Positions 1 to 46,840 of a stretch of DNA of 64,000 bases are shown one piece after another. The position numbers and the translations under genes are program-made. Where the stretch lies: positions 512,001 through 576,000 of the forward strand of contig OY762940.1 of the NCBI GenBank assembly GCA_963667255.1. Reading direction: 5' to 3'. How positions within the stretch are numbered: position 1 is the first letter of the stretch; every line of letters starts with the position of its first letter. The notes beneath the pieces were generated by a model. It ran no database searches, was not told where the DNA came from, and saw only the letters and a list, made by a program, of their open reading frames with translations. The DNA comes from Candidatus Cloacimonadota bacterium. GTDB lineage: Bacteria; Cloacimonadota; Cloacimonadia; G963667145.

Positions 1-2
1 AT

Positions 3-13087: not shown

Positions 13088-13119
13088 GCGGCTCAAGTGA
13101 AAATTTGAGTCGCTTTTTT
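13088..13119 (+). terminator. Rho-independent terminator of the first giant gene
   Basis: GCGGCTCAA-gtgaaaat-TTGAGTCGC stem (one G-U pair) followed by T6, ~40 nt after the stop codon. Confidence 0.8.
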
Positions 13120-13208
13120 ATCTTGTGGAAAATATACCGAAAGAAGTCATATGTTGCTAATCAAGCAATTGTTTATTTTTTGTGTGGGAGTTCCCAATCC
13201 TCTCCCGA

Positions 13209-13614
13209 CTGGATACCCGCATTTCATCCACATCCCCGCATTTTCCTCTCATCCTCGCACCTCACCCACATCCCCGCGAAAGCGGGAATCCACAGGGCAG
13301 GGTTGGTCAGGGACATACAGATGGAGAGTGGACTGGGACATTGTTCTCGCTCCCAAGCTCCAGTTTGTGCTTCTTGCTGTTCTTTGTTTTCTTGCTTGTT
13401 CTCTCCCCTCATACTCACGGAAGTGGGTATCCATTCTCCTTTTCGTTACTCGCTCTCAATCTCCAGCCAAACACAGTTTCATTATGCTTGATAGACTTAG
13501 GAACGAGATTGTTTTTCCCATTATTAACAGAGGCTCAAGCAACTGCACAATAGGGGTTGGATGGAGACATCAGCACTTGCCTCCTTTCTCGTTCCCGCGG
13601 AAGCGGAAATCCAG
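13209..13614. repeat. Cluster of REP-like short palindromes
   Basis: CATCCCCGCGAAAGCGGGAATCCA (13269-13292), CATACTCACGGAAGTGGGTATCCA (13410-13433), CGTTCCCGCGGAAGCGGAAATCCAG (13590-13614), an inverted half copy at 13209-13220, and a second-family element TTGTTCTCGCTCCCAAGCTCCAGTTTG (13341-13367). Confidence 0.75.
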
Positions 13615-13803
13615 TTAGGTTGGGGAGGGAAAAACCCACAAAATCGTAAATACCCCCATCAATATAAAAATCAAATAGATAAAAAAATATGTAAAAAAAT
13701 AGCGATTTTTACAAAAATTTGTATCTTATTGAAACATCAAGAGTAATAAATTTTCAAAATTGTAACAAAATAATTTTTTTCAGTATGATAACTTTAGGCA
13801 AAT

Positions 13804-13956
13804 AGTTTATAACTCCCTAAATAGTGTTATCTTCCTGGTGTATAGTCGTTTATAACTCGTGGATAAACTGTGAAAAAAATCTTTTGCTTTTTGCGTATCT
13901 TATTGATGTTTATAGTGTTGTTGGATTTGCTCAAAAAAGGACAAAATTTATTGACA
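13804..13956. promoter_or_regulatory. Cluster of DnaA-box-like 9-mers next to an AT-rich tract
   Basis: Reverse-strand 9-mers compared with TTWTNCACA: 13869-13877 TTTTTCACA (0 mismatches), 13858-13866 TTATCCACG (1), 13847-13855 TTATAAACG (2), 13837-13845 CTATACACC (2), 13804-13812 TTATAAACT (2), 13907-13915 CTATAAACA (2). Forward strand: TTATTGACA 13948-13956 (1), which also contains a perfect -35 TTGACA. Confidence 0.45.
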
Positions 13957-14070
13957 AACTCCGTTACTGTTAACAATTTACTATTAATGGGCGTGTAGTA
14001 TGTACGCATCAGAAATTGGAAAAAAATATAGGTGCAAAATCAATTGGTTGTAGTAGCCCGAGAGGGAATT

Positions 14071-14075
14071 AGGAG
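14071..14075 (+). promoter_or_regulatory. Shine-Dalgarno site of the 10,918-aa gene
   Basis: AGGAG 8 nt upstream of the GTG at 14084. Confidence 0.7.
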
Positions 14076-14083
14076 AATGTATA

Positions 14084-17000
14084 GTGTCTAACACAAAAGG
14101 CAGAAATTACGGCAGATACCTCAAGATATTTATAGGGCTACTGTTGTTTTCGTTGTTGAGTTGTAACGATATGATCGTAAACAATGACGAGATTCCTGTT
14201 CCTACTAATGTGCAAGCCAGCTCTACCTATACAGACAGGATAAGGGTTACTTGGACATGTTCCGATGCAACCAATTTCATTATTTACCGTGCCGAGAGTA
14301 GTAGCACCACGGCTACCAATTATACCAAGTTGGCAGAAGTTTCGGGGAACTCTTATGACGACAAGGAGAGCTCATTAGTCCCGGGGAAAATCTATTATTA
14401 CAAAGTTTCTTCCTACACATCTACAGTTTCTCAAAAATCCGATTTGACTGGTAGAGGAAGTATAAAAGTTGCTACTCTTGAGAGCCTGTCTGCTACTACC
14501 GACCAAGAATATAAGATAGTGTTGTCATGGACGCTTCCTTCTACGCTTAAAAGTTCTTTGATAGAAGGATATGTAACTATTTACTATTCAAGCAATCCCA
14601 GCACAGTAATGGCAGACCTTTCAGACTCTATTTCCCTGAGTAATTTGGCAGGAAGTTACAATTTAACCAATGTTACCATAGGTCAGACATATTATATCAA
14701 GACAAAAGTTTCCGTGAAAGGAACTGGTGAAAGTGATTTGAATTTAAAACATTCGGATGTCAGCTCTGTGGTTACGGGAAAAACCGCTCTGACTTCTCCG
14801 AAGAATGTTATCGCCAGTAAGGGAACTTATTCCGGTGGTATTCGTATTACTTGGGACAAAGTTGTGGGTGCAACTGCTTATTTAGTTTTAAGGGGAGAAG
14901 TCAATAGTTCTCAGCTCACTTATGGGACTACAGTTGGCACATTTTATAGTGGGGTTACTACATATACCGACAGAAATTATGTGGACACAACTATCACGAT
15001 GGGGCAGAGTTATCGCTATGCAGTTAAGACAATAGTTACCGAAAACAACAATACTGTTACTAAGGCGTTGAACTCGGGAATAAATGATAAGGACACTGCT
15101 GGAGTATATCTTAACTTGGGATATGCCAATTATTCTAAGCTTACGAATCAAGGCATTTCCACTGATAGTATTGGTAAGGTTGTTGTAAGTTATAAAGCTG
15201 CAACTACTTCGTTTGACAGTGTTTTCGTCCAATTGTATCGTCGCAATTATTCCAGTTCTGCTACCTTGTCACCATTGGGTTCTCCGGTTGCTATCTCCAG
15301 TGCTGTGTTTACTATGACAGACATTTCGGCTGTCCCGGGACAAAAATACTATTATTCTGCTAAAATATATAGATTGTCAGGCACCAACAAGATGGGCGAA
15401 TCTGCATATGCCGATGAAGTGGTGGGCTATAGCCGCTTGGAATCTCCGCAAAATTTGACTGCTACAGATGGTAGTAGTAGTGCGAATGTTATTGCCAGTT
15501 GGAATAAAGTAAAGGGAGCAATAACATATTACGCTTATATTGGAACAGACAGCACTTCCATGAGTTGCATGGGAACTACGCAAGACACCTTCTATGCTTT
15601 CACTCGGGCGTTCTATGAGACGGGCAAGATTTATTATTTCAAAGTCAGAGCATACAACAATGTTTATTCGGATTTTTCCAATATTGATACCGGCTGGATA
15701 AGGATAGCTGCCCCGAGCAGTTTGAGAGTTTCTGAAAGGTTGCAAACTACTCTCGGTTTGGAATGGGCTAGTGTAAGAAATGCAATATCTTATGTGATAA
15801 CACGAAAGAATAACACTTCAAACTCTGCATATGTGAAAGTGGATACGATAAGTTCAACATCTACTTCTTATACGGATACAGGATTGGTTTCAGGTGCATC
15901 CTACACCTATAAGCTTTATACTATTAGTAATCGCTATTTAACTGCTTCGAGTTCTTATCAGATGTCCGAGGCTTCTGACACATTAACAACAAGAACGCTG
16001 CTTGTTGCTCCTACTTTGGATTCCGTTTCCAGAGATTTGACCGACAAGATTATTGTTTATTGGACAAGCAATAGTGCTAGCAGTTTGACGGGACTGAAGT
16101 ATAGGATTTACAGAAAAAATGATAGAGGCGGGTATGATAATATAGGAGAATCTTCAACTACAACTTTTGAGGTTCCAATCGATTCTATTGTTCTCGGCAA
16201 GGTATACACTTTTGGAGTTAGTGCTGTGTATGATGTAGAGTCTGAACTGAGCCTAACCAAGACCGGATATAGCAAATTGGATGCTGCCAACAGTCTATCG
16301 GCTACTCAGGGACTACTTGCTGACACGGTTCGCTTGACTTGGCATACTGCTCTCAAAAGTGGTGCAGAGCAGTTCAAAATAGTGAGGACAAAATCTGGCG
16401 AGAATGATTATTTGCAGGTCGGCTCGCTGACAGATTTGACCACTGCCACGGTAACTTCTACTTATCGAGGGTATACTTATAATGATGTTTCCAATTTAGA
16501 AGGTGGTCAGAATTATGACTACAAAGTGGAATCTTATCGCTCGGATTATACACTTCAGTCGGGAGTTAGTAAGATATACAGTAATGTTGCCACCGGAAGA
16601 ATTAAGATATTGCCTCCTGAGATATATAAAGTCGATTGTGGCGTATCAAGCGGGAAGATTACTATTATTTTCAACAAGTTAGCTTCAGCTTCCTCATATC
16701 GTTGTTATTACTCCAAAGATGGAAGTTTTTCCGATAGCACTTATGTTTCAATAGCCACAGGTGCTGTTACCACTTATGCTGAGAACAAACTCAAGTATGA
16801 AATGGCTATTAGCACTCTCGGGTTGAAAGACGGACAATTGTGCTATTTCAAGATGGCTGCGGTAGTCTCAAATGAGGTTTCGGCTCTATCTGACATGAAG
16901 CCTGGATTTTCTCTTCCGGTCAAACCGGTTATTTGTTCTCAAGGCACTAAGGGGACTCAGGACTACATCCATTTTGCATGGAACAAGGTGAGCAATCCGG

Positions 17001-38000: not shown

Positions 38001-41000
38001 GTGATGCAAAGGATACAATTTTTACTATCAAAGATAGTGGGACAGGTTTATTTACGACAGCCAAAGAGATTGGGAAAAGATATCGCTATTTATTGAGAGC
38101 TAGGATAACAAGTAAGCTACAAGACACAATGTATGTTGTTTCTGATAGCATGGATATGCTGTATGATTATCACTGGGCAAACGATTCTGCAACTACTAAT
38201 AGTAAATACTCTGCAAGTAAGGGAAATTACCGAGATAGGATTCTCTTTAGATTTACACAATTCAAACCGTGTAGAGATACTGCCGACTACGATACTCTCG
38301 GCATTACGCCTGATACATTGAGTTATTATGTAGTAGCAAGGTATAAGGAAAATGCTTTGGGATGCTATATTATGGAAGACAAAGATACAGTTCATGTTAG
38401 CGATATGGCAGTTATCTCTTCATACGGTGGTCTTGATGAATATTATATTGATGACAATGGCGAAGATTCTATCTTCACCACTGCACTTGCAGATGCCGTC
38501 CAATATACATATTCTGTGCAAGGTTTTATTGATTATGGTGGAGGCACTGTATTTAGTTCCAAAGTTATCAAGGACAGCTCTATTTGTAATGGACATCTTA
38601 AAATGCCCAGTTTGACACTGACAGATATCGGTTACATTTTGGTTGATTCAGTGCGGTATGGTATTAAGATTAAGTGGGACAAGCCCAGCACAGCCAGTTG
38701 TTCATACATTGTAGGTAGAGATACCGTCCCTACATTTGCAGAGCAAAGTGATAATTATGTTCCTGCTGCTATGGATACTATTTTGGCTAGTGGGAATTTG
38801 ATATTGAACGATACGATGTTCTTGGATTCCAACACTACCGCTAGTCCTCTTGGGAAGACCAGTTTGGGATATACATACTATTATAGAGTTAAAAGGGGTG
38901 TTGAAAGTAGTTCCAAAGATACGATTTATACCAGCTGGAGCAATGTTGTTTACAAAACATATGGAATGGTAAACAATGTTTATAATATCACGACAGCCAG
39001 TGAGTTTAACGATGTGGCGACTCAAATAAATAGTGGTAAACTTAACAAGAGCATTAGTGTGGAATTAGCAAAGGACATAACTTTTGCGGGCGTTGATACA
39101 CTTGTGCCAATGGGGAACTCCGCACATCCGTTTATGGGAGAGTTTAACGGGAAAGGTCATACCGTCCATGTTTCCGTGATGAATTTGAGTGATACCAGAT
39201 TAGGACTCTTTGGTGGTGTTAGCTCGGCTACGATAACAAATTTGAAAATTGTGTATGATTCGGCTGTAACAACGACTTCAAAATATTTTGGTGGTTTGGT
39301 CGCTGAGCTTGTTGGTGCGGCAACAATTAAAGGCGTTGATGTCACATTTAAAGACACTATTACGGGTGCTGATTATGTAGGTGGATTGATTGGCGGTGGA
39401 AGTGGAGCAGCAACTCTGAGAAACGACTCTGTATATTTAAGTGGGAATATAACCGGAGGGTTATATGTCGGAGGATTTGCCGGAGAGTTAGTCGGATATA
39501 GCACAGTGGATAGCTGTCAAGTCTCTGCCAGTAGTAGCTCTATTGTCTCTACTAACGCTGTAGGTGGTGGATTTGTAGGATACTTCCGCGGAACTATGAC
39601 CAATAGTCAGATGGATTTGGCGGGGCAAGTTAAAGTCAGAACAGGAGCATCAGGCACTCAAGTAAGGTTGGGAGGCTTGGTAGGAGAAGATTTAGGGAAG
39701 TCATCTTACAAGAATGTTACCATAAAGAATCGTCCGACTGTAGATGCAGGTGTTTCCACAGTGAGTCAGGCTATTGTAGGTGGTTTGGTAGGATATAGTA
39801 GGGCGGAGTCTATTAGTGATATTTCTATGGGTAGTGTCAAGAGTGTCCGTGGTATAGCCAGTGGAGCTGTATATGCCGGAGGTGTAGTAGGTATGTTTGA
39901 CTATGCTAGTGGATATATGGAGAAATTCAATCTTCAAGGTTGTGATAGCATAGTTGGGCGGTCTACAAGCGGTGATGTTTGTGTAGGGCTGATTGCAGGA
40001 AGAACAGAAGAGATATCTTCTACCGTGAGTATAGGCTCTGCAAGCGACACGATTAGAGTTTCTCTTGCTTCGGGTAAATATTTATCTGCCAGTTCTACAA
40101 GTGGTAAACTTTATTTGGGTGGTGCTGTAGGTTATAGCGAAGATTTGGTTCTTAAAAATACTAAGATAGATTCTATCCAGTTTAATGCTAATGGCTTATA
40201 CGGATGTGTTGGTGGAGCTGTGGGGTATGAGAGCACAAATGGAAGTAAATATACCAGCGTGATTGTGGGTAGCAATGTTGCTCTTAATAGTGGATTATCT
40301 TCTGTTAAGGAGCTATATGCAGGAGGATTGGTAGGTGTCGCTAATTCATCCACAACAAGTGGAACTAAAGTTGCTGCTAAGTTTGACTTTACCAATTCCG
40401 CTTTTGCCAGCAACAAAGTGTATTTGGGTGGTGTTTATGGGCATGCATCTTCTTCTGACATTGATTTGACAGGGATAGAAAAATTAAGTTTGGATTCGTT
40501 TGCGTTCAAAGTTGGAAATAATTCTGTTGTCGGAGGCTATGCAGGTATCTTGGATGTAAAAACTTTCACTCTCGACACAACTACAATTTCTAAGATTAAG
40601 TTCTCTTCAACTTCTGTAAATACAGCAGGGGACTCTTCTTCCGTTGGTGGTATTGCCGGAAGTTGTGTTGCCTCAGGAGTATTGAATATCAATTATGGTG
40701 GTTCTGTCAATTTGTTTGTTGCCGGTGGGAAATTGTCCAATGTTGGAGGCTTGTTTGGTAAAATGTCTGTTCCCGTGGGAGCAACTCTGATAGATACATC
40801 TGCTGGAGGAATAACTCTTAGTGCGGGGACTTCCGGAGCAGGTGTCGGTTCATGGTATGGTGGATTGGTAGGGCATACCTATGGTGGCACATTGAAAGGT
40901 CTCAGAGTCAGAGCTACCATAGACAGTGCCAAGATTGTTGGTGGTTTGGTTGGTAAACTGAGTGGTTCTGCTATTTTGAAGACCTCTTATGCAGATAGTT

Positions 41001-44000
41001 TGGTTACTATCAATGGAGGGACTTTTGTAGGTGGTCTTGTCGGAGAGGTGGTAGAGAACGATAATGCTACCGGAATTAGCGAATGCTATGTTTATGGCAT
41101 CAAAACTTCCGGCGATTTGGGCGAAGTTGGGCTTTTGGTCGGTAAATTGACCAAGGGATACATTTCTTCTTCATACGCTATTTTAAATAAAATCGATAGA
41201 ACCGGAACAGGCAATAATGCTTTATTTGTAGGGAAGATGGCAGACGGTAAGGTTTTGAACAGTTATGCTATTCACAACGGAGTGAAAGTCTCTGGGGCTT
41301 CTGCTTATTCCGATATTACCAAGAGATTTGGGACTTATACTGCCGGAGATACCAGTGGTGCGATAACAGCCGAGAACAGAATATTAATGTCTCAGGAGAT
41401 TACGGGTAGTGTAAATTACGAACTTCGCAACCTTTATTCATATCCTGTTTTGGTGAACAATGTCCGAGAGATAGACACTTCAGTCCTGAGTAATAGTCTT
41501 AGGATGACAAGAGATAATAACGGGAAATATGTAGTGACCAAGCCAATCCAGTTGGATGCAATCGGAGATGTCCGGTTGGTTGGGCAAGATTACAACAAAG
41601 TCAATTCAACTTATTTCCCTGCAGGGTTGCGGTTGGTAGATAGTTTCATTTTGGGCAACAACCTTGATTTCACCGGATACATAGGTTATTCTCCTATCGG
41701 TTATGCAAATTATAACAAAGCATTTACGGGAAGTCTTTTCGGTGACGGGAAAACCATTAAAGGATTGGATGTCTCTTACAGTAACCTTGGAGTAATCAGC
41801 ACAGTTTCTTATAGAGGTCTAGTTGGACATTTTGCCGGTGGAGTCATCGAAAAATTGCGTATTAGCAAAGCTGTATCGGTTGCTACTGGAGGAGACTATT
41901 GTGCTGTAGTTTGCGGCAAATTGGAAAGCGGAGTAATAGACCAAGTGCAGGTTGATTCTGCTAACATCAACATAGGTAGTGGTAAGAATATTTCCCTTGT
42001 CTGCGGAGAGATAACCGGAGGCACTATCCAAAATGTCAATACGATTCGTAACCATATCTTAGGATTGCGTGCAGTTGGTTCACTCATCGGCAAGATGTCT
42101 GGTGGCACTATATCCAAGTCTATCTCTACAGCCGATAGCGTTGTTTCTGAAGTGGGCAATGTAGGAGGCATAGTAGCTGAGCAAACAGGTGGTAAAGTTA
42201 CTAAAATTTATTCTGCTGCTCGAATTTTGGGCGGGACGAATATTTACAAAGTTTCTAGTCTTGGTGGTGGTAGTGTTGATTCTGCATACTCTTTGGGAGA
42301 GACTAATCTGATAAAAGACAATGACACATCTTGGGCTATAGGTCTTGGCATTACTACATACAATGGTAAGAACCTTTTCTTGAATGTTACCAAAGCATCA
42401 GATTTGATTACCAATCTCAATTTGGGTAGTTCTGAATGGACTACAGCAACTGCTGTTAGGACTGTTCCAGCTTTGAGTATTTTCAATAGTAGCGTAACTA
42501 CTATAAATGAAGGCGAGATTTTGTCAGCTTTGGGAGTTCCAGAAAAAACTATGGAAATTCCTACACCTACAGCTTTGTCTTTCGTTTCTTCTTATTCTAC
42601 TCTGAGTTCGGTAGACTCCTTTGTTGTCACCAAAAATTTGGTTTTCACCAGCTCTGATGACTTCTATGAGGGCGAAGGGAACCTTGAACCTATTGCTTCG
42701 CTGAATGGCAAAGTATTCAGTGGAAAAGGTCATACTATCAAGAATCTCAAAATTGTAACCAATGGGACTAAGAGTGGTTTGATTTCGGAGCTAACTGGTG
42801 GTGCCATCATTGAGAATCTTGGTTTGATAAATTGCGAAGTGACAGCCAATAGTGCGGGTGCGACAGTGGGAATGTTGGTGGGTAATGTCTCAACTGGTAT
42901 AGTGCGAGATATCTATATGGCAGATTGTCGTGTAATAGCTACAGGTGCGGGAAGTTCTGTCGGTGGGGTTATTGGTAAGAGCAATGTCTCTGGCGATGAC
43001 TGTGACAGGATAATCGCATTGAATACCTCTCTGAGAGGCAATACTACCAGCTCTTATGTGGGTGGAATAGTTGGCTCTGCTACGGGTAAATTTAATTATA
43101 TGTTTGCTTTCAACGATACTCTGATAGGTAAAACTATGGGGAGAATCTCCGGTAGTGGCGGAACAATAGCAGATGCTTATGCTTGGGCTCTGGATACTGT
43201 TGGTAGAGGTAGCACCATAGGTTTGGCTACAATACATGGCAAAACTACTGATTTCCCTTCAATTTTGAATAAAGATATTTATAACAATTTTGTTTCACAA
43301 CCTGCTTGGACTTGGACGGAGGATAAAGATAATTGGCAATGTGCACCACTTTTAGCATATATGGACTCTACAGATGCTAGCCCCGAAGTTCTTCGATTCT
43401 TTGGGGGATATGGCAGCAAAGATATGCCATTCCAAATCAAAACTTTGCCACAATTGAACTTGGTTAGAGCTTTTGCACAAAGTGGTAAATATTTCAAGAT
43501 GAGAGGCAATATCAATTGTGATAACATAAACTTTGATGGTGATGACTCTAACGGTAACTGGAAGCCAATTGGCGGTAAGGATGGATATTTCTTGGGGCAT
43601 TTTAACGGTAACGGATATAGTGTTTATAACATGAAGATTAAAAATGTTTCTCCGGCAGGTTTGTTTGCAAGTTTAGGGACAACCGGTAAAACAGATGTAG
43701 ATGTAAAATATCTCAGTATCTATGATGCCGAGATTACGCATACTGGGACTCTTGTAGCGGGTAATCTCAGTGCGTATAACTACGGAATCGTAAACAATGT
43801 CTTGGGTAAAGATGGTAAAATCTCATCTTCTGATGGAACTTATATTGGCGGTATTTTAGGACAAAATATAGGGAAAATCTCCAGTTGTGCATCAGCAGCC
43901 AACAAACTAACCGGTAAAACCGTTGGTGGAGTGGTAGGACATAATAAAGGGAATCTTTTGCTTTGTGGCTCTGTAAACGATTCGATTACTGCCAGCACTG

Positions 44001-46840
44001 GTTATGTTGGAAGGGTAGTTGGTAAGAACGAGAATGTCATTTCTTCAAACTATGCCTATAGGGGTACTATCATCAATGGGGCTGTAATTACCGCCGCACT
44101 AACAGGTGAAAGCACTATTCACGGTAAGTCTGTTTCTATTTTGTCATTTAGTTCCAGTTTCTATGACGGGAAATTGGCTATGGATATGATTAGCACATTT
44201 ACTTGGCCTGCACCTTCAGTGCCTAACGATGTTTTTGTCCCAGCAGGCAAATTTGTACCTATTAGTATTGACTCAGGATACATTGATTGGGGTATCCCAA
44301 ATCCACGAACTTTTGCTGGTGGAGACGGTTCATACTCTAATCCTTACAGTATCAAGACGGTGATAGATTTGAACAATATGCGATATGGTCCAGATATGTA
44401 TTTCCGCTTGGATACGAACCTCGTGGATGCTTCTGCTTTCACTTCGCCTATAGGTACGGCTGATATCCCGTTCGAAGGTTGCTTCTACGGCAATAATCAT
44501 TACATTTCTAAACTCAAAATAACAGTTGGCAGCACCGGTGTAAGCGGTATTTTTGGAATATTAAAAGCCACGGAAAGCGGTAGATTTATCCAAAACTTCG
44601 CCATTATGAATTCCACAATTAACGGCGACAAGAATTGTGTGGGAGCTTTTGCCGGAGTGGATGCCAGCCCCTCAGGTAGACCCTATACATTCAAGAATCT
44701 TCTTTCTTACAACAATAGGATTACCACTACGGGCGACTCTGTGGGTGGCATAGTGGGTAGTGCTCCTTATGCGACCATGACCAATTGTTTGGTAGTGAAC
44801 GGATATTTGGAGGCAAAAAATCACTTGGGTGGTCTGTCCTCTAAGGTGAAAGATTTGGTTAATTGCGGTGTGATAGTAGATACCATGAAAATAACTAATG
44901 CCAACGGGACTATCAACCGATTGGGAAATGTAACTGAAGGTTCGACTGTTGGCGTAGGTTGGTATTTTGGCAAAGTGTTAAAAGCTACTACAGCATTGTC
45001 GCCTGCTGATAGTCCAAATAATAATAACACTGCAACAGGCAACAACGCTACTGCTGGGAATTTTGTAGATTCCACTTATTGGAAGGACAGAGGGTTTACC
45101 CTTGCTAATGGATGGTTGCCTGCTCCAACGGGTAAATTCCAAGTAGCACCAACTCTGAAGAGCATGAACTATGACAGTATAGTGGTGGGCGGACTGTATC
45201 CTACCAGTGGAGACGGAACGATTGCCAGTCCATATAAGATTACCGATACGCTGGGATTGAATATGTTGCATTTCTTCGTCAGTGGAGGACCTCTTGCAGG
45301 GAAGTATGTTGAGGTTGAGATGCCTACTTGTTCTGCTGGCAATAATGTGATAGATTTGGGCAACTCCAGTAGCAATTGGGAACTCGACTTGAACGGAACT
45401 GAAGATGGTAACTGGAGACCGATAGCCGATTTCAGCGGAAACTTGAATTTCAAAAATGGTGGTGTTGACCATTTGAAAATTCAACAAAGCTTTAACAGCA
45501 ATCAAGGATTTTTCGCTTCTGTTACCAGTGGTTATGTGAAAGGTATGGGAATTTACAATTCGAGATTGTCCGGTTGCACCGGAAATGTAGGATGCTTGAT
45601 AGGTGAGCTTAGCGGTGGCTCTGTAGAGGCTGTTGTCGGTAGGCAAAATACCATCGTCAACGGTGCTACTGTGGGTGGATTGGTAGGTAAAATTTCTGGT
45701 GGCTCTATCAAACAAGGAATATTTGTTTGGAGTAGTCTCAACTCAGGAACGATTGTTGGTGGAGCACTTGGTAGCTTTGTAAGCGGTGATATTTCCCGCA
45801 TAGCTGCCATGGGTAATAAGATATCCTCCGAAAACTCTGTTTTTGTTAATACGATATTGGGTTCTGGAGCGAAAAATATAAATACCGACACGCTTATATG
45901 TGACAGCACACTAACGATTATCGGTTCGGGCAATGGGGCTTTCCCGAGTGCTGAAGACGGGAAATTGTATACCATGGTTAACCACATAGGCGACAATAGC
46001 TTGTGGACGAGCAATGGCTTTGACTCTATTACCTATTTCAGAAATTTGAATGAAACCAGAATTATCTTCACTCTAAAAAATGTTCCTCTGGCTGTAGATG
46101 ACGGTATTATGCCTACCTTGAGAGGAGATGGGACTTACGCTGTTCCATACCAAGTCTTTAATCCGGCTTCCTTGAAACAGGTAGGTTACGAGAAATATGT
46201 CCAAGGACCATACTATTTTGTTCAGACTGCCAATATTGATATGAGCGATGTTCCGGACTTCTGGCCTATAGGTTTGAAAGATAATAACAATATTTATAAC
46301 AAAACTTGTGACGGTTTTAAAGGCGTTTATAATGGTCGCGGATACAGAATCTCCGGATTGCATGTTGCTGACACTACCAAGGATTATGCAGGATTATTTG
46401 CCAAATCTGTTGGTTTCACCGATACTATTAAAAATGTTGTTTTGGATAGTGCCAGTATCGTGGGAACTAAATGGGTCGGTGCTCTTGTTGGCTATAACGA
46501 TAGTGCTGTTATACAAGATTGTAGAGTGTTCAAATCTACTGTTAGACAATCTATTGCAAGCATTGTAGCTGGAGGAGTGGGCGGTATTGCAGGATACTCC
46601 AGCAAGACAGTAACCAGATGCTTGTCCGTGAACAACTATATGGCGAGTGGTAATAAAACAAATGATACCAAGATGGGCGGTATCGTGGGTCAAGGTGAGA
46701 GTTTGACAGTTAGCTATAACGCTGTTGTGGGAGCACTGTTCATCAATGAGAAGAGTAGCTTCGTAGGTAGGATATTGGGAGGTGGTAGTTCTATTATTTA
46801 CACCAAGAACTACAGTTGGGAAGGTGTGATGGTCAGATAG
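14084..46840 (+). CDS. Giant 10,918-aa predicted lipoprotein/adhesin: FN3-like repeat stalk + GLUG-type C-terminal repeats
   Basis: Uninterrupted 32.7-kb ORF with RBS. Signal peptide MSNTKGRNYGRYLKIFIGLLLFSLLS-C27 (basic N-region, hydrophobic core, LLSC lipobox). Dozens of ~100-aa modules of pattern P..V.AS.G.Y.D.I.I.W...Y.IYR...Y.D...G..Y.Y.V.A extend to ~38970. Gly-rich repeats follow, with GDG(T/S)...PY.I, PIG...F.G.F.G.G..I and YVGGLVG motifs. Confidence 0.92.
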   Translation: MSNTKGRNYGRYLKIFIGLLLFSLLSCNDMIVNNDEIPVPTNVQASSTYTDRIRVTWTCSDATNFIIYRAESSSTTATNYTKLAEVSGNSYDDKESSLVPGKIYYYKVSSYTSTVSQKSDLTGRGSIKVATLESLSATTDQEYKIVLSWTLPSTLKSSLIEGYVTIYYSSNPSTVMADLSDSISLSNLAGSYNLTNVTIGQTYYIKTKVSVKGTGESDLNLKHSDVSSVVTGKTALTSPKNVIASKGTYSGGIRITWDKVVGATAYLVLRGEVNSSQLTYGTTVGTFYSGVTTYTDRNYVDTTITMGQSYRYAVKTIVTENNNTVTKALNSGINDKDTAGVYLNLGYANYSKLTNQGISTDSIGKVVVSYKAATTSFDSVFVQLYRRNYSSSATLSPLGSPVAISSAVFTMTDISAVPGQKYYYSAKIYRLSGTNKMGESAYADEVVGYSRLESPQNLTATDGSSSANVIASWNKVKGAITYYAYIGTDSTSMSCMGTTQDTFYAFTRAFYETGKIYYFKVRAYNNVYSDFSNIDTGWIRIAAPSSLRVSERLQTTLGLEWASVRNAISYVITRKNNTSNSAYVKVDTISSTSTSYTDTGLVSGASYTYKLYTISNRYLTASSSYQMSEASDTLTTRTLLVAPTLDSVSRDLTDKIIVYWTSNSASSLTGLKYRIYRKNDRGGYDNIGESSTTTFEVPIDSIVLGKVYTFGVSAVYDVESELSLTKTGYSKLDAANSLSATQGLLADTVRLTWHTALKSGAEQFKIVRTKSGENDYLQVGSLTDLTTATVTSTYRGYTYNDVSNLEGGQNYDYKVESYRSDYTLQSGVSKIYSNVATGRIKILPPEIYKVDCGVSSGKITIIFNKLASASSYRCYYSKDGSFSDSTYVSIATGAVTTYAENKLKYEMAISTLGLKDGQLCYFKMAAVVSNEVSALSDMKPGFSLPVKPVICSQGTKGTQDYIHFAWNKVSNPDNIRYEILRTRNSDYSTTIIMTTDSFYKDTSVVPGFKYFYKCRAVDQTALNACNTAYSSAFDSMLVKSLYSDTTSGYVKVGKVKDLSASNNKQDSVELTWTSLAKGVSYDVVRRPVNSTTWSTIISSLDTGWCIDSKTYNNVQGYSYYYKIKSYTNDYPNIYTLSDSVQGHMAPSPPQNVVASKGEYADTIKVSWDTLPMVSSYSVLRIDGNGTLMPISPNVTSSGSRVYFYDINLTKGLGYLYLVRANLDYSMGQTVYSDTSIASLKTSATGYTKLPKVGSITATQGTYRDSIRISWSKVGVATSYSLFRYYQGTLKNEYTVTDTVYLNKRSADLNDGQIYSYVVFAKKGTIESVSSSDTAKGYLQLCGPKNVEATQGLKDTIVISWDTLTATTIDSYYIYLSTNLNVALGGVKSPAKRYAYPVPSADKGATIGFVVKGKSSSFGLSATSDVASGYCLVDTLTNFKAVGADTASANPKVVLSWTSPASADSIRIQVKTGATWDALAVLPKDTTSFTDTGRIVGRSIQYRAQGIRTVSGVERNSGFVYTNISLHIPTIAFDTITKGDYLSYVYLTWPCLPSKDEANFQIFVYETEEKYNSGTVFDTLTVVESGKSSYAFKHSANTAKNGFVKGTKYFYRIRTNTITDGTWSALTPMNPTPSVYYGWSKTPAPILDSVTTNLVGSIKIYWRYGSGASSGQVRTVGFGITKIADVSGTYLERNTEIFSGQYYTISVRAINPAIRDTSDWSNSLIGLAQVGPPSVFSASDGTKNDTVQLSWGISGTTPNYGAEKYVIERGLDTSNFNVLQTVEDNSWNIGEQARTLTYNDVLTNSEIGKMYYYRIYAKGGVGNTSAPSKIDSGWAKIPAPEITGYTGYNGSLPLETDSIRVTWSDPCSLATASTVYNIVVTMNGNTTNHIRNWNSKSFSLNIAQADRYQGINVKIYSARNTFGNSLETASLLTYTILPVVAKGDIIKSLTATDKGVSLSYKGTNAWVDSIIFLRKVSGSTVSTQVAKVANPGSSITVTYGDSSGLILSTVYGYSFKLYSKYAGYSVESDTVSVKTKVIPPESFSATKGTSTSNVTMSWTSVASGTRKISYNIYADTVYQDFKASVAAGNKMISPAVASSPVSFTAGTLLNSWLTLERGRKYYFTATTNETSIYAGVNSISVPSNIDSGYISLAKPVLDSVSKGAYSDSIIVRWRACNAYKHNTYVKYKLYWSCDGGAQSTKIISSSDYTYDGTYIRYALPKTEGSITNLLAKKVYTFKVRGVMTASASTFEDSSEISISGLTGWLALARPTSFKANYSGYSPDKIQLRWNNPDNLLVRIYMSNNKSTLWDNFLYSAAKGATTYDVPIESDTNRGVYKYFGARFYDQTFGLSNIADTGCQDSGLAQIDTIKITSVSRGDYLDSILVYWDSLPNVNQYQVRVDDISGNLVQSYSWSSYSVFRETFKGSNLTKGQKYYFKVKARNSAIPIPAVEGSFQSKGVYGFTQLPKVTGVTATDGIHSDRIRIQWTALSGAQEYVVYRSEDTISVGSPIATVTTNSHDDSASTLVFAKDYYYRILGVNSWTRDISASKKNYSAFDTGWIKLPIVKNISASKGTLEGKILVSWDQLSRVDGYYIDTCGYGLSTYGTLDSITSASTSRVYYYESNGLKLGRCYYFKVRAYTGNRSNSLSEVTADSGYMSLGKVQNVRASQGTYADSIRVLFNKVTGYTQANQYELQRYSVSKTNTATVGQYASFAIVADTVAVVDTSFNPEREGFIYKYRVRIAIPSQLLWSEWSDWGLEGWSSLPKLAIKVYDEQDSLKVDTIKVHWDTSSFAGRSATKIELQYGADTVSFSKSVILNKQEQLDKGYLMLDAENYVTIKQGQVFYFRAKIYRTEGTSEISSAFSAIDSGWYQLKKVTMSTMGLGQYADSIYVSWTPQSSLPSLVLSAMTYEIFRNGVRLDSVIGGKTSYYDTTGIDRGKSFTYAIRASHNKFKKSSVSDSAKGYATILTPMLDTVRVSGDDLKVEWRYSTGVDIDSFYVYRLESRDASLPEPTHSAAYSSAVSSYSWTNTACEKGKDYFYCVRAYKRGLSLSDTSQIKSNYIKLDVPVIDTVSRGTSTSQIVIKWKDDTYAKQLSIVRDTLSNFSTAKILDTVNFTVKTYTDANNLQDGKIYYYKINSIRGRFTSDTSKFVAGYTSYKVPAFDGIVNNEDSIQVKWKENGSSADSVLLVIGNDVQVTSPLDSMQTGDKETKNLITKFNSPTWFVRGKEYYIRIKGISHYNTVKREGNSAEKFAVCSDYANAKICYSSLQVPQISVTRNLLDTVKVSWNKMASDVVSVVRVEWKQGAFGVAGDSIYRELNNDGVDTVLEIKVDSSEYKLLAATKYKFRVRFFRGTISSAYSNVDTGWSKLPAPVSLSVSRATYDDSLRFTWNNYLNGTDKNKDSTYEYVLEYEKNSSYALFKRISARESFYDVVYNANSIPLGVETKFRIRGVYRAGEKIDSVTTNLPTATGWTRLIPPIDTAADSSTVSKNIVGKIKIKWTNKLTDATQKTAYNNMGVVYQVERRKSTESFIESGYQTVSSYLVDSFIDSSNLWPQYTYYYRVRYFSPHYYNLLGSTSKSISPWVEIKDSGYLKLATPTVEVGVVGTYYTDSVLLRVKRVYGSDSLYLYRKSADETGYTLWDTVIFPSTSTLIYGAKSYYTDARKIRRGQAYSYKAVALAGIRKSDTSAACSTFTLLGKVSNVVATDATSEDSVVVTWDTVAFADFYDIRVENENGATLFGTVRLNKQDTIIAVKKKSLGGLLDYGVIYKFGVIGKSKNCVYNGDTLGTEAVYDKGYLRFTKPTITALSKDSVGKIKIGVSYPNSGFTFKVYRSPDSAYFKNTTNQYDKYEKIEAILTDSGNGGYQCVDYTSVTNGTNGVHYAYFIQAVSGSIASAISDSTKSDTATDINKRFGYSKIAAYPGELSATKGISTDSLVVSWPVPEIASKLDSIKYQWFEYKDDVAKDSGIVKGTKVVRDTTTNARGVRYKYRIKLKAYDKNGNNYTTSDISLDSKTGWISLDTPTIVLTRDALKNNVISISNSTLPFGLFRTINGVSMSEIRVSAGKSYTDSVLYANYYVGKHVSYTVKTYNSDFTLQSPFSLAVDTYYYIYPPAYFAASQGTYENKISLNWAWKNQEKAHVDSFILYRYNNSVLSKRVALTESNLTINLAGDSLLYYDIDEIKQGVSYRYGIKTKRVNTGFSNRESDTTWNIKNGYATFSAPQNLTASKTAKQVTIKWDSLRNQGSVGGYILFYTADKSKALSLWDTAVVTDTVLTQSGTKAVPEGTIRWYKVAAFSSIVDTGTVSTSDVYGYALMNAPSGLNCCEAVSVDSIRVTWTKKADIYKTYYLQWALDTASNSNGTFVKPLGEKGDYDYSTSSFVLDSFTIPITADSLRGRRIYVKLWAQNSYGRSEPALDSGYTRLAKLTSLSVSKGLRKDSLRISFAKPSDANTASFNLIVDTLGSNFSSPERKIESIVTMDTILKVNHSGYYYKVGVSANSNLTGAGSDTIWDSGYSKIPAPTGITAEALKTGYNKITWNKGYIGANQEISYSVYRKDNSNAVATVVNRYKDASASATSSLIDSSCMPGYHYEYYLRAYATSRPFNSSVSIESDTSAHASVDTKIGIIANFIQDTNAFSQTSASLYWSQRGDLVNYEIWYSRFADTTTAKKIDVTIANSNFYTSISDSLANFPGMLWHFWIKAKTASGLTGTWTPDNDTGLLVYTLPSISTIDSVSEGVSEDTIYVRWSKSKYSKFRLAYRKSSATTWDTLSARADTIAKISKTTHSLIRGEQYYFKVNSLIDSGTVSPMGSTHGAYGRYLESGYSESKVGYLKYDTIANFRVYNQADSIKDDRINLYWDKTEGSNVSYLLYRSTTSDVSTASLMSMSTLTDVGYYEDARANNGSAPLPGKAYYYWITAKKNTLPNSEGEKKKLRGYANNAFNGVDSAWTKLIAPSNLKVSGVFYSSTMKNDKSLSYTDSIVIRWNKMSSVDSFRLQGSIGSTIYLDTFVSDTHVCWKGMVRGKVYSFKVCAFNSLVGKTSPKWTDAVNGFAMLKAPTSVTLKQDTINCGVVVSIDTVHLADKYLLYSHSTGGSFEKLFEVPHAIRSPLDTLDNTLLPGKKVWYCVTAYNGTTGGSDSSAIVDTFCPVLPPNGLSATKGTRSGDVYITWNLDRFTKGVDSFRLYRDSLAGIWTEGDHIATVKTFSGALVEYYDVLGSVSAASDTLFSGKKYKYALKSYANGYSSKFTSNEKVDTGWVALPDVNKVRGTFVKAGTDSIKLYLTVSKLANKNVGYVYRRVKMKRGSFDTTYVTTLLTNDSLVKDGNNLKEGMVYSYEFKAYNSNFIGLAAHGAPSVWSNKTGAQLGSAGMISANWSTLTYGGKKFAAPTIHAVRNFDSLKVDTITFSWQSDSLVTHYNFVRDTTVAFSSPVAFGLTNNSLRSLDSYFYAPAEGLAKTQPYYFKMQKQNQEYEMTAWDSLSSPWSAIDSSWSKLIPPKGVTATTKIVDTIRVNWNKYSWKDTVSYVVVSKNSAGTWVATTVGNFDSLRFRSTYADGEKEIGVYTTHAKFGSSDTSSPLVIGMGKIESPTFADGPTRGRYLDSVVMVMNEAGMNSAKTKFRMYYSTDKTSPAISSINPDDGDYFASDSNRLVFKSGSGLYTSGYGAKVYFRVAWSLGSIYSEKSAVDSGWTKLDTPTNFQSRPLEDPLDTMAIKLIWSNPANVDTVKIYRTRVKDNSFVLRKDVLTSGSNGSFIDIIPEEDRRKTYYYKIMATNKLDSTDSKFTDSVKAFVAIYNITNFSATDGAKRDTIELSWKADLDTNFTIRIYTDRDHNSVVDSIKNLKASAGKSWIPNKTTTFPGYWYYFRVNLEGDENSPTVKFAAVDSGYALIPEISRDSVIITNDTSKIKLGTRIANVDDSAFTQFDATGAFRLNYVSKIYVSKYNAITGVFTIVDTLLTGKKIVKDIDLTYGKINRYSLKFVNQVSTGFERDYYSFTTLRKPATPTWSSSDLSLTQIKLRVFKGNNDATLIDSVVLYRLDSKGNKDTMVYAFSTTMEPNSLIDTLKLTQALFYSYKAAFYNNKTGISRICDSIDSVYVKLQAPVFDSISKGTNRDTIYIRWKTVSAASKGYRLYRNENYPEGSFSLLKSFGIKTDTFYKDSSVYEQCKNIYYRLLAVGEDTTSLLSDCTPDYGSRAFRGVKNLVSKNVPQLSKVQLEFSVPSTISLSNPEPAEKFDKGVQLMRYDTISDTAKTNSIYSPRVTVINNGSGSYSLEDDSLLIGQLYFYRVLVKSTVSASVSELSNIAEGYILPPPITGVSATIGAKIDTIVLSWTRISPATLRRDTVDAQIIYRSNDGFVSNKDSLTIGGKDSIFADCGTKMGNLLKPGHDYSYKIKAVVKINEPDTGGRIFETTLYSAYSNVASGWAQMGALANNQVTVVKTDTSKINRRYPPATIADSVVQINFTNLPTYATYLNIYRKTMGTTQFIFADTVKFSGTSVTYCDTVTGSRNRGDVLLYRIKLGANHEAEKYFDTASYTNLQQAVSITTLSYDTSMVKLMVTLAYNSYANTDSLLMSRYSMSDVLQDSFLTAVGGRMVTVVDTGGTPGTLYKYKAALFNSATGYSPYSSVVDTIGKVILPPRFDTITKGVYEDSISIVWHKNKYASKGYILYRDTSGLTGSVDALYDSIYTITSISDTVYADKKTYPASKHIYYKVVSVGTDTKSSKSAKDYGYLKYKGIKDLVVKGWSNSLFTDSLQINWTMPTALPIDSIFVSRLTDVDSSANLDTLTAHRLANSLIAPRISIVTNGDYTNYKYLNSSASSELLLGQLYFYRIRIKITGITEASTPSNLGIGYLNLPKVSNVYATTGEGDSIVISWTKLPRVKTDKVDSYRVYRSDGQKISVSGDIGEVTDYSFGTSLYGTLLSKGASYKYAVVAEMKIDQDTLPGTSPGKFVKVLLSPISDSALGYTFPDSAHIDTVSKGTVQDFIAIGYRTPKNADTVALYRKLTSDVGWPSTALSGLPGNVSTTAYYNDSAIVTGAMYQYKILVRKGAVDKYTRIDSGYSFLSAPDSILIANNGENSKLIMLKIFSPNVQSYQDSILIHRASLSLSDTDSVSYRVPSPLIGNMYIVNDTHNIHQGVFYKYKVRFKNELGSSPYTAAKNTKAYAKLDVPSLKSVSVREYPDTIKLVWSKVSHASRGYVIWADSTLNTDGTIASAYKIIDSTTSVNDTIYKDTTNYLPEQTIYYKVQSFGPDTTSALSSAERGSLKYKGLDSLNIDINNPKVDTIYFSWALPTTIVNPQFTFYKYDSVTKIDSLTDVYKMSNISAYKVAGVDTLYYAMETPASDVLTIGNLYFYRCVVSIGGLASNASKAKYGFLAMPEVKGFSASAGGARTPEFVIYQDSIVISWKKVSYFKSGESPEYILNKYDTSGAKIGSITIRDTMYVDSVGGRGFGTAIERGQSYKYSVKAKFTISEAIIGGTATHTILSKDSTIVTGYTFPDSAHIISVSKGTITDTIKVEFTTPKYADSIVLYRTNSGNITKRLDTLRINAISTTNYIDSSSDLIASSNYVYQIRVYKNGLINLSNLDTGYIKLAAPDSVWCERSDQYASGYKDTSEIVIKWNYEKNAHGYWVYLAKSSLKTNFAPIDSTQLPSVYDTMLKYQPKDFLNRADSINDYYFVVKSYVRNQDGNIRYSDISMEDSGAVVSQSVVGISAKYDSGKDSIVVKWTGLRANYNRSEVDSFVVYQAANTKQSTGFTRVASTKDTIISIDSNRTSAGNFYYYKVKVYYNNDKRVSVYSPVTSENDVYLPLGKANLRVSRNKKQLTVIFDTIANVTAYKLYRYIDTLPSTYSPVKTWTNTSATSAASGDSVTWIDASVLQGKIYYYGMVVGKTVVVDGETLTCSSNFGFSVAQRKCGYIRSYFSLVDFDFVSGGLKLFWSRGINFADGVIPEYYDLTRGVSPAIGSFVNISDKVTKKVSTSDAKDTIFTIKDSGTGLFTTAKEIGKRYRYLLRARITSKLQDTMYVVSDSMDMLYDYHWANDSATTNSKYSASKGNYRDRILFRFTQFKPCRDTADYDTLGITPDTLSYYVVARYKENALGCYIMEDKDTVHVSDMAVISSYGGLDEYYIDDNGEDSIFTTALADAVQYTYSVQGFIDYGGGTVFSSKVIKDSSICNGHLKMPSLTLTDIGYILVDSVRYGIKIKWDKPSTASCSYIVGRDTVPTFAEQSDNYVPAAMDTILASGNLILNDTMFLDSNTTASPLGKTSLGYTYYYRVKRGVESSSKDTIYTSWSNVVYKTYGMVNNVYNITTASEFNDVATQINSGKLNKSISVELAKDITFAGVDTLVPMGNSAHPFMGEFNGKGHTVHVSVMNLSDTRLGLFGGVSSATITNLKIVYDSAVTTTSKYFGGLVAELVGAATIKGVDVTFKDTITGADYVGGLIGGGSGAATLRNDSVYLSGNITGGLYVGGFAGELVGYSTVDSCQVSASSSSIVSTNAVGGGFVGYFRGTMTNSQMDLAGQVKVRTGASGTQVRLGGLVGEDLGKSSYKNVTIKNRPTVDAGVSTVSQAIVGGLVGYSRAESISDISMGSVKSVRGIASGAVYAGGVVGMFDYASGYMEKFNLQGCDSIVGRSTSGDVCVGLIAGRTEEISSTVSIGSASDTIRVSLASGKYLSASSTSGKLYLGGAVGYSEDLVLKNTKIDSIQFNANGLYGCVGGAVGYESTNGSKYTSVIVGSNVALNSGLSSVKELYAGGLVGVANSSTTSGTKVAAKFDFTNSAFASNKVYLGGVYGHASSSDIDLTGIEKLSLDSFAFKVGNNSVVGGYAGILDVKTFTLDTTTISKIKFSSTSVNTAGDSSSVGGIAGSCVASGVLNINYGGSVNLFVAGGKLSNVGGLFGKMSVPVGATLIDTSAGGITLSAGTSGAGVGSWYGGLVGHTYGGTLKGLRVRATIDSAKIVGGLVGKLSGSAILKTSYADSLVTINGGTFVGGLVGEVVENDNATGISECYVYGIKTSGDLGEVGLLVGKLTKGYISSSYAILNKIDRTGTGNNALFVGKMADGKVLNSYAIHNGVKVSGASAYSDITKRFGTYTAGDTSGAITAENRILMSQEITGSVNYELRNLYSYPVLVNNVREIDTSVLSNSLRMTRDNNGKYVVTKPIQLDAIGDVRLVGQDYNKVNSTYFPAGLRLVDSFILGNNLDFTGYIGYSPIGYANYNKAFTGSLFGDGKTIKGLDVSYSNLGVISTVSYRGLVGHFAGGVIEKLRISKAVSVATGGDYCAVVCGKLESGVIDQVQVDSANINIGSGKNISLVCGEITGGTIQNVNTIRNHILGLRAVGSLIGKMSGGTISKSISTADSVVSEVGNVGGIVAEQTGGKVTKIYSAARILGGTNIYKVSSLGGGSVDSAYSLGETNLIKDNDTSWAIGLGITTYNGKNLFLNVTKASDLITNLNLGSSEWTTATAVRTVPALSIFNSSVTTINEGEILSALGVPEKTMEIPTPTALSFVSSYSTLSSVDSFVVTKNLVFTSSDDFYEGEGNLEPIASLNGKVFSGKGHTIKNLKIVTNGTKSGLISELTGGAIIENLGLINCEVTANSAGATVGMLVGNVSTGIVRDIYMADCRVIATGAGSSVGGVIGKSNVSGDDCDRIIALNTSLRGNTTSSYVGGIVGSATGKFNYMFAFNDTLIGKTMGRISGSGGTIADAYAWALDTVGRGSTIGLATIHGKTTDFPSILNKDIYNNFVSQPAWTWTEDKDNWQCAPLLAYMDSTDASPEVLRFFGGYGSKDMPFQIKTLPQLNLVRAFAQSGKYFKMRGNINCDNINFDGDDSNGNWKPIGGKDGYFLGHFNGNGYSVYNMKIKNVSPAGLFASLGTTGKTDVDVKYLSIYDAEITHTGTLVAGNLSAYNYGIVNNVLGKDGKISSSDGTYIGGILGQNIGKISSCASAANKLTGKTVGGVVGHNKGNLLLCGSVNDSITASTGYVGRVVGKNENVISSNYAYRGTIINGAVITAALTGESTIHGKSVSILSFSSSFYDGKLAMDMISTFTWPAPSVPNDVFVPAGKFVPISIDSGYIDWGIPNPRTFAGGDGSYSNPYSIKTVIDLNNMRYGPDMYFRLDTNLVDASAFTSPIGTADIPFEGCFYGNNHYISKLKITVGSTGVSGIFGILKATESGRFIQNFAIMNSTINGDKNCVGAFAGVDASPSGRPYTFKNLLSYNNRITTTGDSVGGIVGSAPYATMTNCLVVNGYLEAKNHLGGLSSKVKDLVNCGVIVDTMKITNANGTINRLGNVTEGSTVGVGWYFGKVLKATTALSPADSPNNNNTATGNNATAGNFVDSTYWKDRGFTLANGWLPAPTGKFQVAPTLKSMNYDSIVVGGLYPTSGDGTIASPYKITDTLGLNMLHFFVSGGPLAGKYVEVEMPTCSAGNNVIDLGNSSSNWELDLNGTEDGNWRPIADFSGNLNFKNGGVDHLKIQQSFNSNQGFFASVTSGYVKGMGIYNSRLSGCTGNVGCLIGELSGGSVEAVVGRQNTIVNGATVGGLVGKISGGSIKQGIFVWSSLNSGTIVGGALGSFVSGDISRIAAMGNKISSENSVFVNTILGSGAKNINTDTLICDSTLTIIGSGNGAFPSAEDGKLYTMVNHIGDNSLWTSNGFDSITYFRNLNETRIIFTLKNVPLAVDDGIMPTLRGDGTYAVPYQVFNPASLKQVGYEKYVQGPYYFVQTANIDMSDVPDFWPIGLKDNNNIYNKTCDGFKGVYNGRGYRISGLHVADTTKDYAGLFAKSVGFTDTIKNVVLDSASIVGTKWVGALVGYNDSAVIQDCRVFKSTVRQSIASIVAGGVGGIAGYSSKTVTRCLSVNNYMASGNKTNDTKMGGIVGQGESLTVSYNAVVGALFINEKSSFVGRILGGGSSIIYTKNYSWEGVMVR
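32050..36840 (+). repeat. Three ~525-545-aa internal super-repeats (about five FN3-like modules each)
   Basis: G(Q/N)LYFYR recurs at ~32909, ~34544 and ~36116, with matching flanking motifs (AS(K/R)GY, G(V/I/L).. L, D(S/T)IV.SW). The upstream paralog has the same motif at ~696 and ~2271. Confidence 0.8.

Follow-up and report, generated by a model that had tools for sequence, protein, structure and literature searches.

Giant bacterial adhesins such as LapA, SiiE, Ebh and Bap are megadalton rods built from beta-sandwich or helical repeats, with the binding region at the far end; LapA and SiiE are secreted by the type I route, and Ebh and Bap are Gram-positive. Ebh is also cited in PMC11573180. 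Here, we analysed a 64,000-nucleotide stretch of DNA from a Candidatus Cloacimonadota bacterium (assembly GCA_963667255.1, contig OY762940.1, positions 512,001 to 576,000, forward strand), hereafter the window, which holds the gene for a lipoprotein of 10,918 amino acids (aa) that we call paralogue C, one of three giant paralogues (A, B and C) in this genome. Paralogue C shares with these adhesins the megadalton rod of repeats and a distal region, whose binding function is putative. Unlike them, it lacks RTX repeats, a C39-type ABC exporter and LPxTG and has a predicted N-terminal lipid anchor, and its repeats are highly diverged whereas theirs are near-identical.

Other described systems resemble paralogue C in part. 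The giant proteins of Omnitrophota, in the accessible text of two preprints (bioRxiv 10.1101/2023.11.21.568195; 10.64898/2026.06.07.730766), likewise exceed 10,000 aa and come from uncultured bacteria with small genomes, and some carry wall-degrading enzymes, as paralogue A carries a GH19 domain; they are mostly multi-transmembrane mosaics beside type II-like loci, whereas paralogue C has no transmembrane helix and its genome no secretin. Bacteroidota surface lipoproteins, in the available part of PMC5080379, are net negative after the lipidated Cys, as are all 18 members of the present family after their lipobox Cys; the K-(D/E)2 or Q-A-(D/E)2 consensus of the former is absent here, and paralogue C is far larger. 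Their transporter is described in the same text as unidentified as of 2016. The Tannerella forsythia S-layer proteins TfsA and TfsB (PMC8729774 and PMC12871550, from the text available) are exported proteins with the same D-(S/T)-hydrophobic motif and the same third-residue preference; paralogue C differs from them in belonging to another phylum, in its ~240-320 predicted sites, in being a lipoprotein and not type IX cargo, and in having a glycan that is predicted. A structure model of the paralogue C head matches two known beta-helices, those of BACOVA_03286 from Bacteroides ovatus (PDB 3n6z) and of the IgA1 protease from S. pneumoniae (6xja). Paralogue C differs in having seven such units in tandem and in lacking HExxH, a protease domain and a Pfam Glug match.

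By sequence and fold tests, paralogue C is a predicted lipoprotein and a member of the fibronectin type III (FN3)-repeat class. It has the stalk and the anchor features of a fibrillar adhesin, the adhesive role of its beta-helix units being putative. The tests exclude it from the type I, type V and type IX substrates, the M26 proteases and the Omnitrophota-type giants. A lipoprotein built of stalk and head is known in kind, and its components (FN3, beta-helix, lipobox) are ordinary; new are the size, the number of sequons and the setting. What surprises is such size together with a genus-wide triplet, loss of type IX secretion and a sequon-loaded stalk. Literature searches turned up no description of this giant lipoprotein family; the terms 'Cloacimon' and 'lipoprotein' are absent from the main text of giant-protein surveys in the parts available, and their supplementary tables could list these proteins.

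An intact lipoprotein gene with a stalk of FN3 modules

The features of the gene, in window coordinates, are as follows.
14071..14075, + strand: ribosome-binding site AGGAG, 8 nt before the GTG start
14084..46840, + strand: giant lipoprotein gene, paralogue C, 10,918 aa; open reading frame (ORF) with one stop and no N
14084..14164, + strand: predicted signal peptide II (aa 1-26) and lipobox Cys27, called by a heuristic of this analysis, not by SignalP
14192..38968, + strand: stalk of about 79 diverged FN3 modules (aa 37-8295), from an iterated profile, Pfam and a structure model
38951..41494, + strand: head unit 1, a long beta-helix (aa 8290-9137)
41510..43387, + strand: head units 2 and 3 (aa 9143-9477 and 9480-9768), modelled as capped beta-helices like PDB 3n6z
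43394..46837, + strand: head units 4-7 (aa 9771-10069, 10076-10369, 10374-10678 and 10679-10918)

A first-pass annotation of this DNA had described an ORF of 10,918 aa and ~1.2 MDa with a lipoprotein signal at LLS-C27 and ~8,300 aa of FN3-like modules, roughly 75-80 in number, and all three descriptions hold. The computed mass of paralogue C is 1.189 MDa. Its N-terminus consists of a basic n-region, a hydrophobic stretch and LLS-C27, and the residues from C27 onward (CNDMIVNNDE) are net negative after the Cys; no transmembrane helix follows the signal. An equivalent lipobox Cys is present in all 18 family members from six genomes, with a net charge of -1 to -3 after it in each. The lipoprotein enzymes Lgt and LspA are encoded in 6/6 genomes of the genus, and Lnt in the window's genome.

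Breaks within the ORF, raised by the same annotation as a point to check, were not found by repeat, orthologue and contig comparison. No 25-mer is repeated within it, and two public contigs, possibly the source data of this DNA, are identical to window positions 13500-33000 (19.5 kb), so misassembly is very unlikely. Together with collinear orthologues in five other genomes, the absence of internal DNA repeats and the agreement of the contigs led us to reject misassembly or collapsed repeats.

In the stalk, an iterated profile seeded from one module detected 78 FN3-like modules in aa 37-8295 and one module-sized gap, giving about 79 modules. Pfam fn3 matched paralogue C with 119 bits against a cut-off of 25 and was the only Pfam family matched. 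The modules are mutually at most 41% identical and closely spaced (64 of the 77 inter-module gaps are no longer than 7 residues), and a five-module super-repeat spans modules 59-72. A structure model of five modules reached a pLDDT of 87, and its fold search was topped by FN3 chains. With FN3 modules being ~3.5-4 nm long, the stalk would measure about 280-320 nm.

A D-(S/T)-hydrophobic sequon enriched in the stalk

D-(S/T)-hydrophobic is the general O-glycosylation motif of Bacteroidota according to the available parts of PMC8729774 and PMC12871550, the latter calling it unique to Bacteroidota and its transferase undiscovered. Paralogue C contains 348 D[ST] dipeptides compared to 142±10 expected (500 shuffles, maximum 186), DT and DS being the two most over-represented of all its dipeptides, and the core motif D[ST][AILVMT] occurs 238 times compared to 54 expected. 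Controls in the same protein gave 0.83 for E[ST], 0.84 for N[ST] and 0.94 for the reversed order, and 642 cytoplasmic proteins gave 0.88. The third residue is, by frequency, I, V, L, S, G, T, A, F or M, and falls within A/I/L/V/M/T/S/C/F/G in 321 of the 348 cases (63% expected). At sequons, D is kept in orthologues at 0.79-0.86 vs 0.52-0.55 elsewhere, and S/T after D at 0.78-0.83 vs 0.42-0.46 elsewhere, with many swaps between S and T. The stalk carries 304 of the 348 dipeptides, at a density that climbs from 1.3 per 100 aa over modules 1-8 to 3.5 over the final 20 modules; the rise recurs in 16/16 intact members, which are related sequences and not independent.

In 87 FN3 modules from 8 non-FCB plasmid proteins the sequon was 0.73-fold enriched, and 152 FN3-rich proteins of at least 600 aa, collected by profile search, had a median enrichment of 1.07; of the 10 among them at 3-fold or more, 7 are pieces of the giant family and 3 are not clearly so. 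All 20 sequon codon pairs are in use. The FN3 controls and the codon-pair use rule out an FN3 or codon artefact. Three FN3-rich proteins outside the three orthologue groups (P0071, P0089 and P0131) are more than 4-fold sequon-enriched, and P0071 aligns with paralogue B at 23% identity over 2,700 aa. Taken together, these sequence patterns point to likely O-glycosylation of the stalk at about 240-320 D-(S/T)-hydrophobic sites.

Outside the stalk, the sequon is enriched 1.8-fold in the beta-helix head and, elsewhere in the window's genome (G000, contig C1), 5-fold in a GLUG protein and 2.5-4-fold in unrelated lipoproteins. At G000:C1:173129-182658, the GLUG protein has 1,558 aa, a Pfam GLUG match, an ordinary signal peptide and no sorting signal that we could see, and next to it a similar gene lies in two ORFs (326 and 949 aa). 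The locus G000:C1:783069-792372 encodes three barrel-like proteins and two lipoproteins of 700-780 aa without a Pfam or NCBIfam match, the latter being 2.5-4-fold sequon-enriched.

A candidate transferase is encoded once in the genome.
G000:C1:966325-968667: TMEM260-like (PF11028) GT-C protein, 780 aa, single copy

We sampled 61 genomes of the class, comprising 6 of the genus (G000 and its relatives G001-G005) and 55 others. The TMEM260-like gene is present in 57 of them and, among 14 controls, only in Bacteroides thetaiotaomicron. The G000 protein matches human TMEM260 (9rql, E 1.4e-8), its Asp36 aligning with Asp52, a residue needed for the activity of the human enzyme (PMC10214176, available part); the accessible text of another preprint reports that human TMEM260 reads a different, longer sequon (bioRxiv 10.64898/2026.09.21.753134). 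The genome also has a GDP-mannose pyrophosphorylase-like gene and two Wzx-family genes. A literature search found no paper joining DUF2723 with 'Bacteroid'.

A variable head of seven beta-helix units

The last 2,620 aa of paralogue C form seven related beta-helix units. Head units 2-3 were modelled as a capped beta-helix (pLDDT 91, pTM 0.86), whose sole match at E<=0.001 was PDB 3n6z (E 7.5e-7, probability 1.00, TM 0.69 on target); the next matches were IgA1 protease beta-helices (6xja, probability 1.00, E 0.011). At E<=0.01, Pfam Glug (PF07581) matched neither the whole head nor any of four head pieces, and 20 G-G-hydrophobic-hydrophobic-G motifs were counted in the head. Since PF07581 has no match, the head is GLUG-like by its fold and these 20 motifs and not by Pfam: the GLUG-type, Gly-rich head of ~2,600 aa proposed in the first-pass annotation is supported as GLUG-like, and not as a Pfam Glug match. 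An M26 IgA1 protease head was ruled out, as no HExxH (scanned in the three G000 paralogues) or protease domain is present.

The heads vary. B and C have seven units and A has four, and among orthologues the last 1,500 aa are 33-39% identical, compared to 40-55% in the stalk. Units 4-7 are the most variable part and end without a C-terminal sorting domain. At the tip of G000 paralogue A, a GH19 domain keeps both motif glutamates; GH19 was rejected as a family feature, as only this one of six A orthologues has it, and because the other five lack it, the G000 lineage gained the tip or swapped it in. The variable heads and the GH19 and Flg_new tip of this paralogue suggest an outward-facing role. 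The head would add 35-50 nm to the rod.

Three giant paralogues kept throughout the genus

The first-pass annotation was silent on the dense O-glycosylation-type sequons, on the two paralogues, one of them directly upstream, and on the conservation of the family across the genus.
G000:C1:491876-525049, + strand: paralogue B, 11,057 aa, in tandem directly upstream of C and collinear with it at 32-47% identity; its 3' part is window 1..13049
G000:C1:377030-410773: paralogue A, 11,247 aa, ending in Flg_new repeats and a GH19 domain

Genome G000 is a single contig of 1,587,896 bases, 98.9% complete, with about 1,360 genes and three giant ORFs, which take 6.3% of this closed 1.59-Mb Cloacimonadales chromosome. 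C is collinear with B along its length (32-47% identity in 22/22 chunks) and with A in 21/22 chunks (24-34% identity). The trio was found in 6/6 genomes of the genus, each of the five relatives being one contig of 1.5-1.6 Mb, and a full-length giant gene in none of the 55 other class genomes, where only partial module matches occurred. Of the 18 genes (three paralogues in six genomes), 16 are intact, encoding 9,923-11,247 aa, and orthologues are collinear across species at 33-55% identity. The C orthologue is split once in G001 and across contig ends in G002; it is also split in one other public contig, at a different place than in G001. A word-index protein search for longer relatives gave five matches, three of them from the giant lipoprotein family.

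The interval between C and B differs among relatives. In G004 (C1:660332-737710) it contains a polysaccharide gene cluster, three FN3 lipoproteins of 3.4-3.7 kaa (thousand aa) whose ends are DUF285-like, and a ~290-aa gene in five tandem copies; in G003 and G005 it contains GLUG-type or transposase genes. Within the spacer in the window (13105-13620), one part is richer in GC, contains short spurious ORFs and matches no family. Similar sequence occurs near G000 C1:178495 and 182714, and a small repeated element is possible.

Export from a diderm cell without type IX secretion

The cell is diderm, with two Omp85 genes in 6/6 genus genomes, and LolA, Lnt, LptE, BamB-like and BamA are present; this outer-membrane machinery rules out a monoderm envelope as an easy explanation. 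Type I, type II/type IV pilus, type III/flagellum, type IV, autotransporter and type IX systems were tested with responding controls, and none was found. For the type IX comparison, 25 other class genomes were taken: the translocon protein SprA was found in 0/6 genus genomes vs 25/25 of the others, and FlgD_ig sorting domains in 0/6 vs 25/25 (5 to 125 matches each). Loss of type IX and gain of the giants count as a single evolutionary event and so form a coincidence, not a statistical correlation. Paralogue C has no type IX C-terminal sorting domain, and a sub-threshold match to such a domain in G000 sits on an unrelated 717-aa protein.

Searches of G000 found no secretin, VirB10, C39-type exporter or flagellar/type III gate, and no type II/pilus ATPase over the cut-off; both TolC genes precede MFP and RND-sized genes. 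Paralogue C contains no RTX motif, LPxTG or SLH. The autotransporter barrel (PF03797) was found in 0/6 genus genomes, the control matching in 3/14, and a Slam search had no match anywhere, controls included, and is hence uninformative. No transporter gene adjoins paralogue C in the window. The motif and Pfam searches thus agree with the first-pass annotation, which had seen no RTX/type I, autotransporter barrel, LPXTG, SLH or type IX-type signal and no adjacent transporter. Its remark that the export of such a protein would be unusual is strengthened: because the organism is diderm and the genus is alone in its class in lacking type IX, the export puzzle is real at the genome level.

Several loci were considered as exporters. 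A MacAB-like operon upstream of B was rejected, being adjacent in only 2/6 genomes, and a weak CagX/VirB9 match downstream of C was rejected as a secretion part, since the genome has no VirB10 partner. This match lies at the N-terminus of a 394-aa protein with a long acidic tail (window 48691-49875, - strand), encoded between dapA and a TPR gene and kept in G001 and G004. MotA and MotB are encoded at G000:C1:676925-682218 in one operon with a TPR lipoprotein, a FliF-C/FliG fusion that carries a signal peptide and a barrel-like protein whose N-domain is LpoB/CsgG-like; the genome has no flagellar export gate. The operon is 72-84% identical in 5/5 genus relatives, with shorter versions in four other class genomes; a giant-specific exporter role for this MotAB/FliF-FliG module is unsupported, as these four have no giants and the three of them tested have SprA. 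A BamG-like barrel (NCBIfam NF053685, below cut-off; G000:C1:1326556-1327911) offers another lead to the export route.

The Bacteroidota-type export signals K-(D/E)2 and Q-A-(D/E)2 are absent, with the charge after Cys net negative in 18/18 members. Four other G000 lipoproteins (C1:433825, 899379, 1328321 and 1386309) are strongly acidic after the Cys (for example GNDEDDK and GSDDDDH), resembling an export signal, and some of these are depleted of the sequon.

A proposed lipid-anchored, glycosylated rod and its alternatives

The reading that we favour, with little more than even confidence, is that paralogue C is a rod of ~300-370 nm, lipid-anchored in the outer membrane, with an O-glycosylated stalk and a variable head that binds a surface or a partner cell. 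The protein would be exported by Sec, lipidated at Cys27 and cleaved by Lgt, LspA and Lnt, for which both the signal and the enzymes are observed. Glycosylation of the Bacteroidota type would take place in the periplasm during export, with the TMEM260-like GT-C protein as the first candidate; selection on the sequon is observed, and the sugar and the enzyme are putative. The chain would then pass to the surface, probably module by module, by an unrecognised lipoprotein route through LolA and a BAM-associated or stator-coupled module, the weakest step of the scheme, where the observation is the absence of the tested systems. The glycan brush may stiffen and protect the stalk, and the three paralogues may present different heads. 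The absence of the relatives' surface cargo in the genus also suggests an outward role. A wider proposal, which we put forward tentatively and regard as rather doubtful, is that the genus lost type IX and replaced its surface cargo with three lipoproteins of 1.1-1.2 MDa forming a 300-nm glycoprotein brush, with hundreds of O-glycans added by the TMEM260-like enzyme and an undescribed outer-membrane route possibly powered by MotAB/FliF-FliG.

Several findings weigh against the rod that we favour. No export route was identified; acidic residues follow the Cys, but the K-(D/E)2 signal is missing. Four other GT-C-like candidates are encoded in G000, and this beta-helix class has no known ligand. 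The one Bacteroidota FN3 lipoprotein tested is sequon-depleted (0.15-fold), and seven large proteins of four other class genomes are unenriched (0-1.4-fold), though the transferase is class-wide. Genome-wide, the enrichment is modest: it is 1.37 for the 134 proteins that a heuristic called exported, falling to 1.21 once the GLUG genes are removed, and 0.95 for 547 cytoplasmic proteins, and over-dispersion is also seen in the N[ST]x control (1.56 vs 1.81). Most sequons lie where a strand begins, and 36 of 171 share a single model position, a pattern that a structural cap fits as well. In the available text of PMC8729774, the abundant surface lipoproteins of P. gingivalis avoid the motif and glycosylation is mainly periplasmic. 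The glycan, the surface location and expression are all putative.

An alternative that we rate as unlikely is a glycosylated coat or spacer brush made of the three proteins, which would act as a hydration layer or as a glycocalyx-like shield from phage, predators or host defences, with adhesion secondary. Three rods of near-equal length kept in 6/6 genomes at 6.3% of the chromosome would suit a coat, as would a sequon density that is highest in the outer stalk and lower in the head, and a precedent for heavy O-glycosylation at the surface exists in the S-layer proteins of T. forsythia (PMC8729774, available part). However, the heads differ in unit number and sequence and one bears a GH19 enzyme, which contact with a target fits better.

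We find it distinctly improbable that paralogue C stays inside the outer membrane as a glycosylated periplasmic scaffold, running along the membrane or filling a cell extension. Such a location would agree with the lack of an export system among those tested and with Bacteroidota O-glycosylation marking mainly periplasmic domains (PMC8729774 and PMC12871550, in the parts available). The adhesin-type heads, the chitinase-family tip on G000 paralogue A and the few sequons near the anchor speak against it. A rod of ~300 nm is, moreover, far longer than the usual periplasm, which is 20-30 nm wide.

Little credence is likewise given to an unglycosylated fibrillar adhesin, in which D-S/T-hydrophobic would be a lineage-specific strand-capping or ion-binding motif spread by module duplication. 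Its clustering at strand starts on few model positions, the common ancestry of the modules and the weak genome-wide signal are consistent with this. Against it, control FN3 proteins are unenriched, the motif occupies 33 different model positions, neither Asn nor Glu substitutes, the density changes along a single fold, and the motif is also enriched in the head (1.8-fold), the GLUG protein (5-fold) and unrelated lipoproteins (2.5-4-fold).

The reading of the ORF as an artefact of assembly or as a silent relic, at which the splits of the C orthologue at different places in G001 and another public contig might hint, has next to no probability and is largely refuted already by the 16/18 intact genes (one of the other two being split at a contig end), the collinearity of orthologues at 33-55% identity, the lack of internal DNA repeats and the contig agreement over 19.5 kb.

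If the favoured rod is real, paralogue C would be among the longest lipoproteins and the most densely glycosylated bacterial proteins described, and a diderm cell would be able to display a megadalton chain on its surface without any of the tested secretion systems. The family bears on which enzyme starts D-(S/T) O-glycosylation, called undiscovered in the accessible text of PMC12871550, and a single FN3 module with conserved sequons would be a ready reporter for that question. It also bears on how FCB-group bacteria move lipoproteins to the surface, as raised in 2016 in the available part of PMC5080379, and the small gene set narrows the candidates for this route. If the reading of a brush that replaced type IX cargo is true, the ~1,360-gene genome would offer a minimal system in which to look for the two missing machines.

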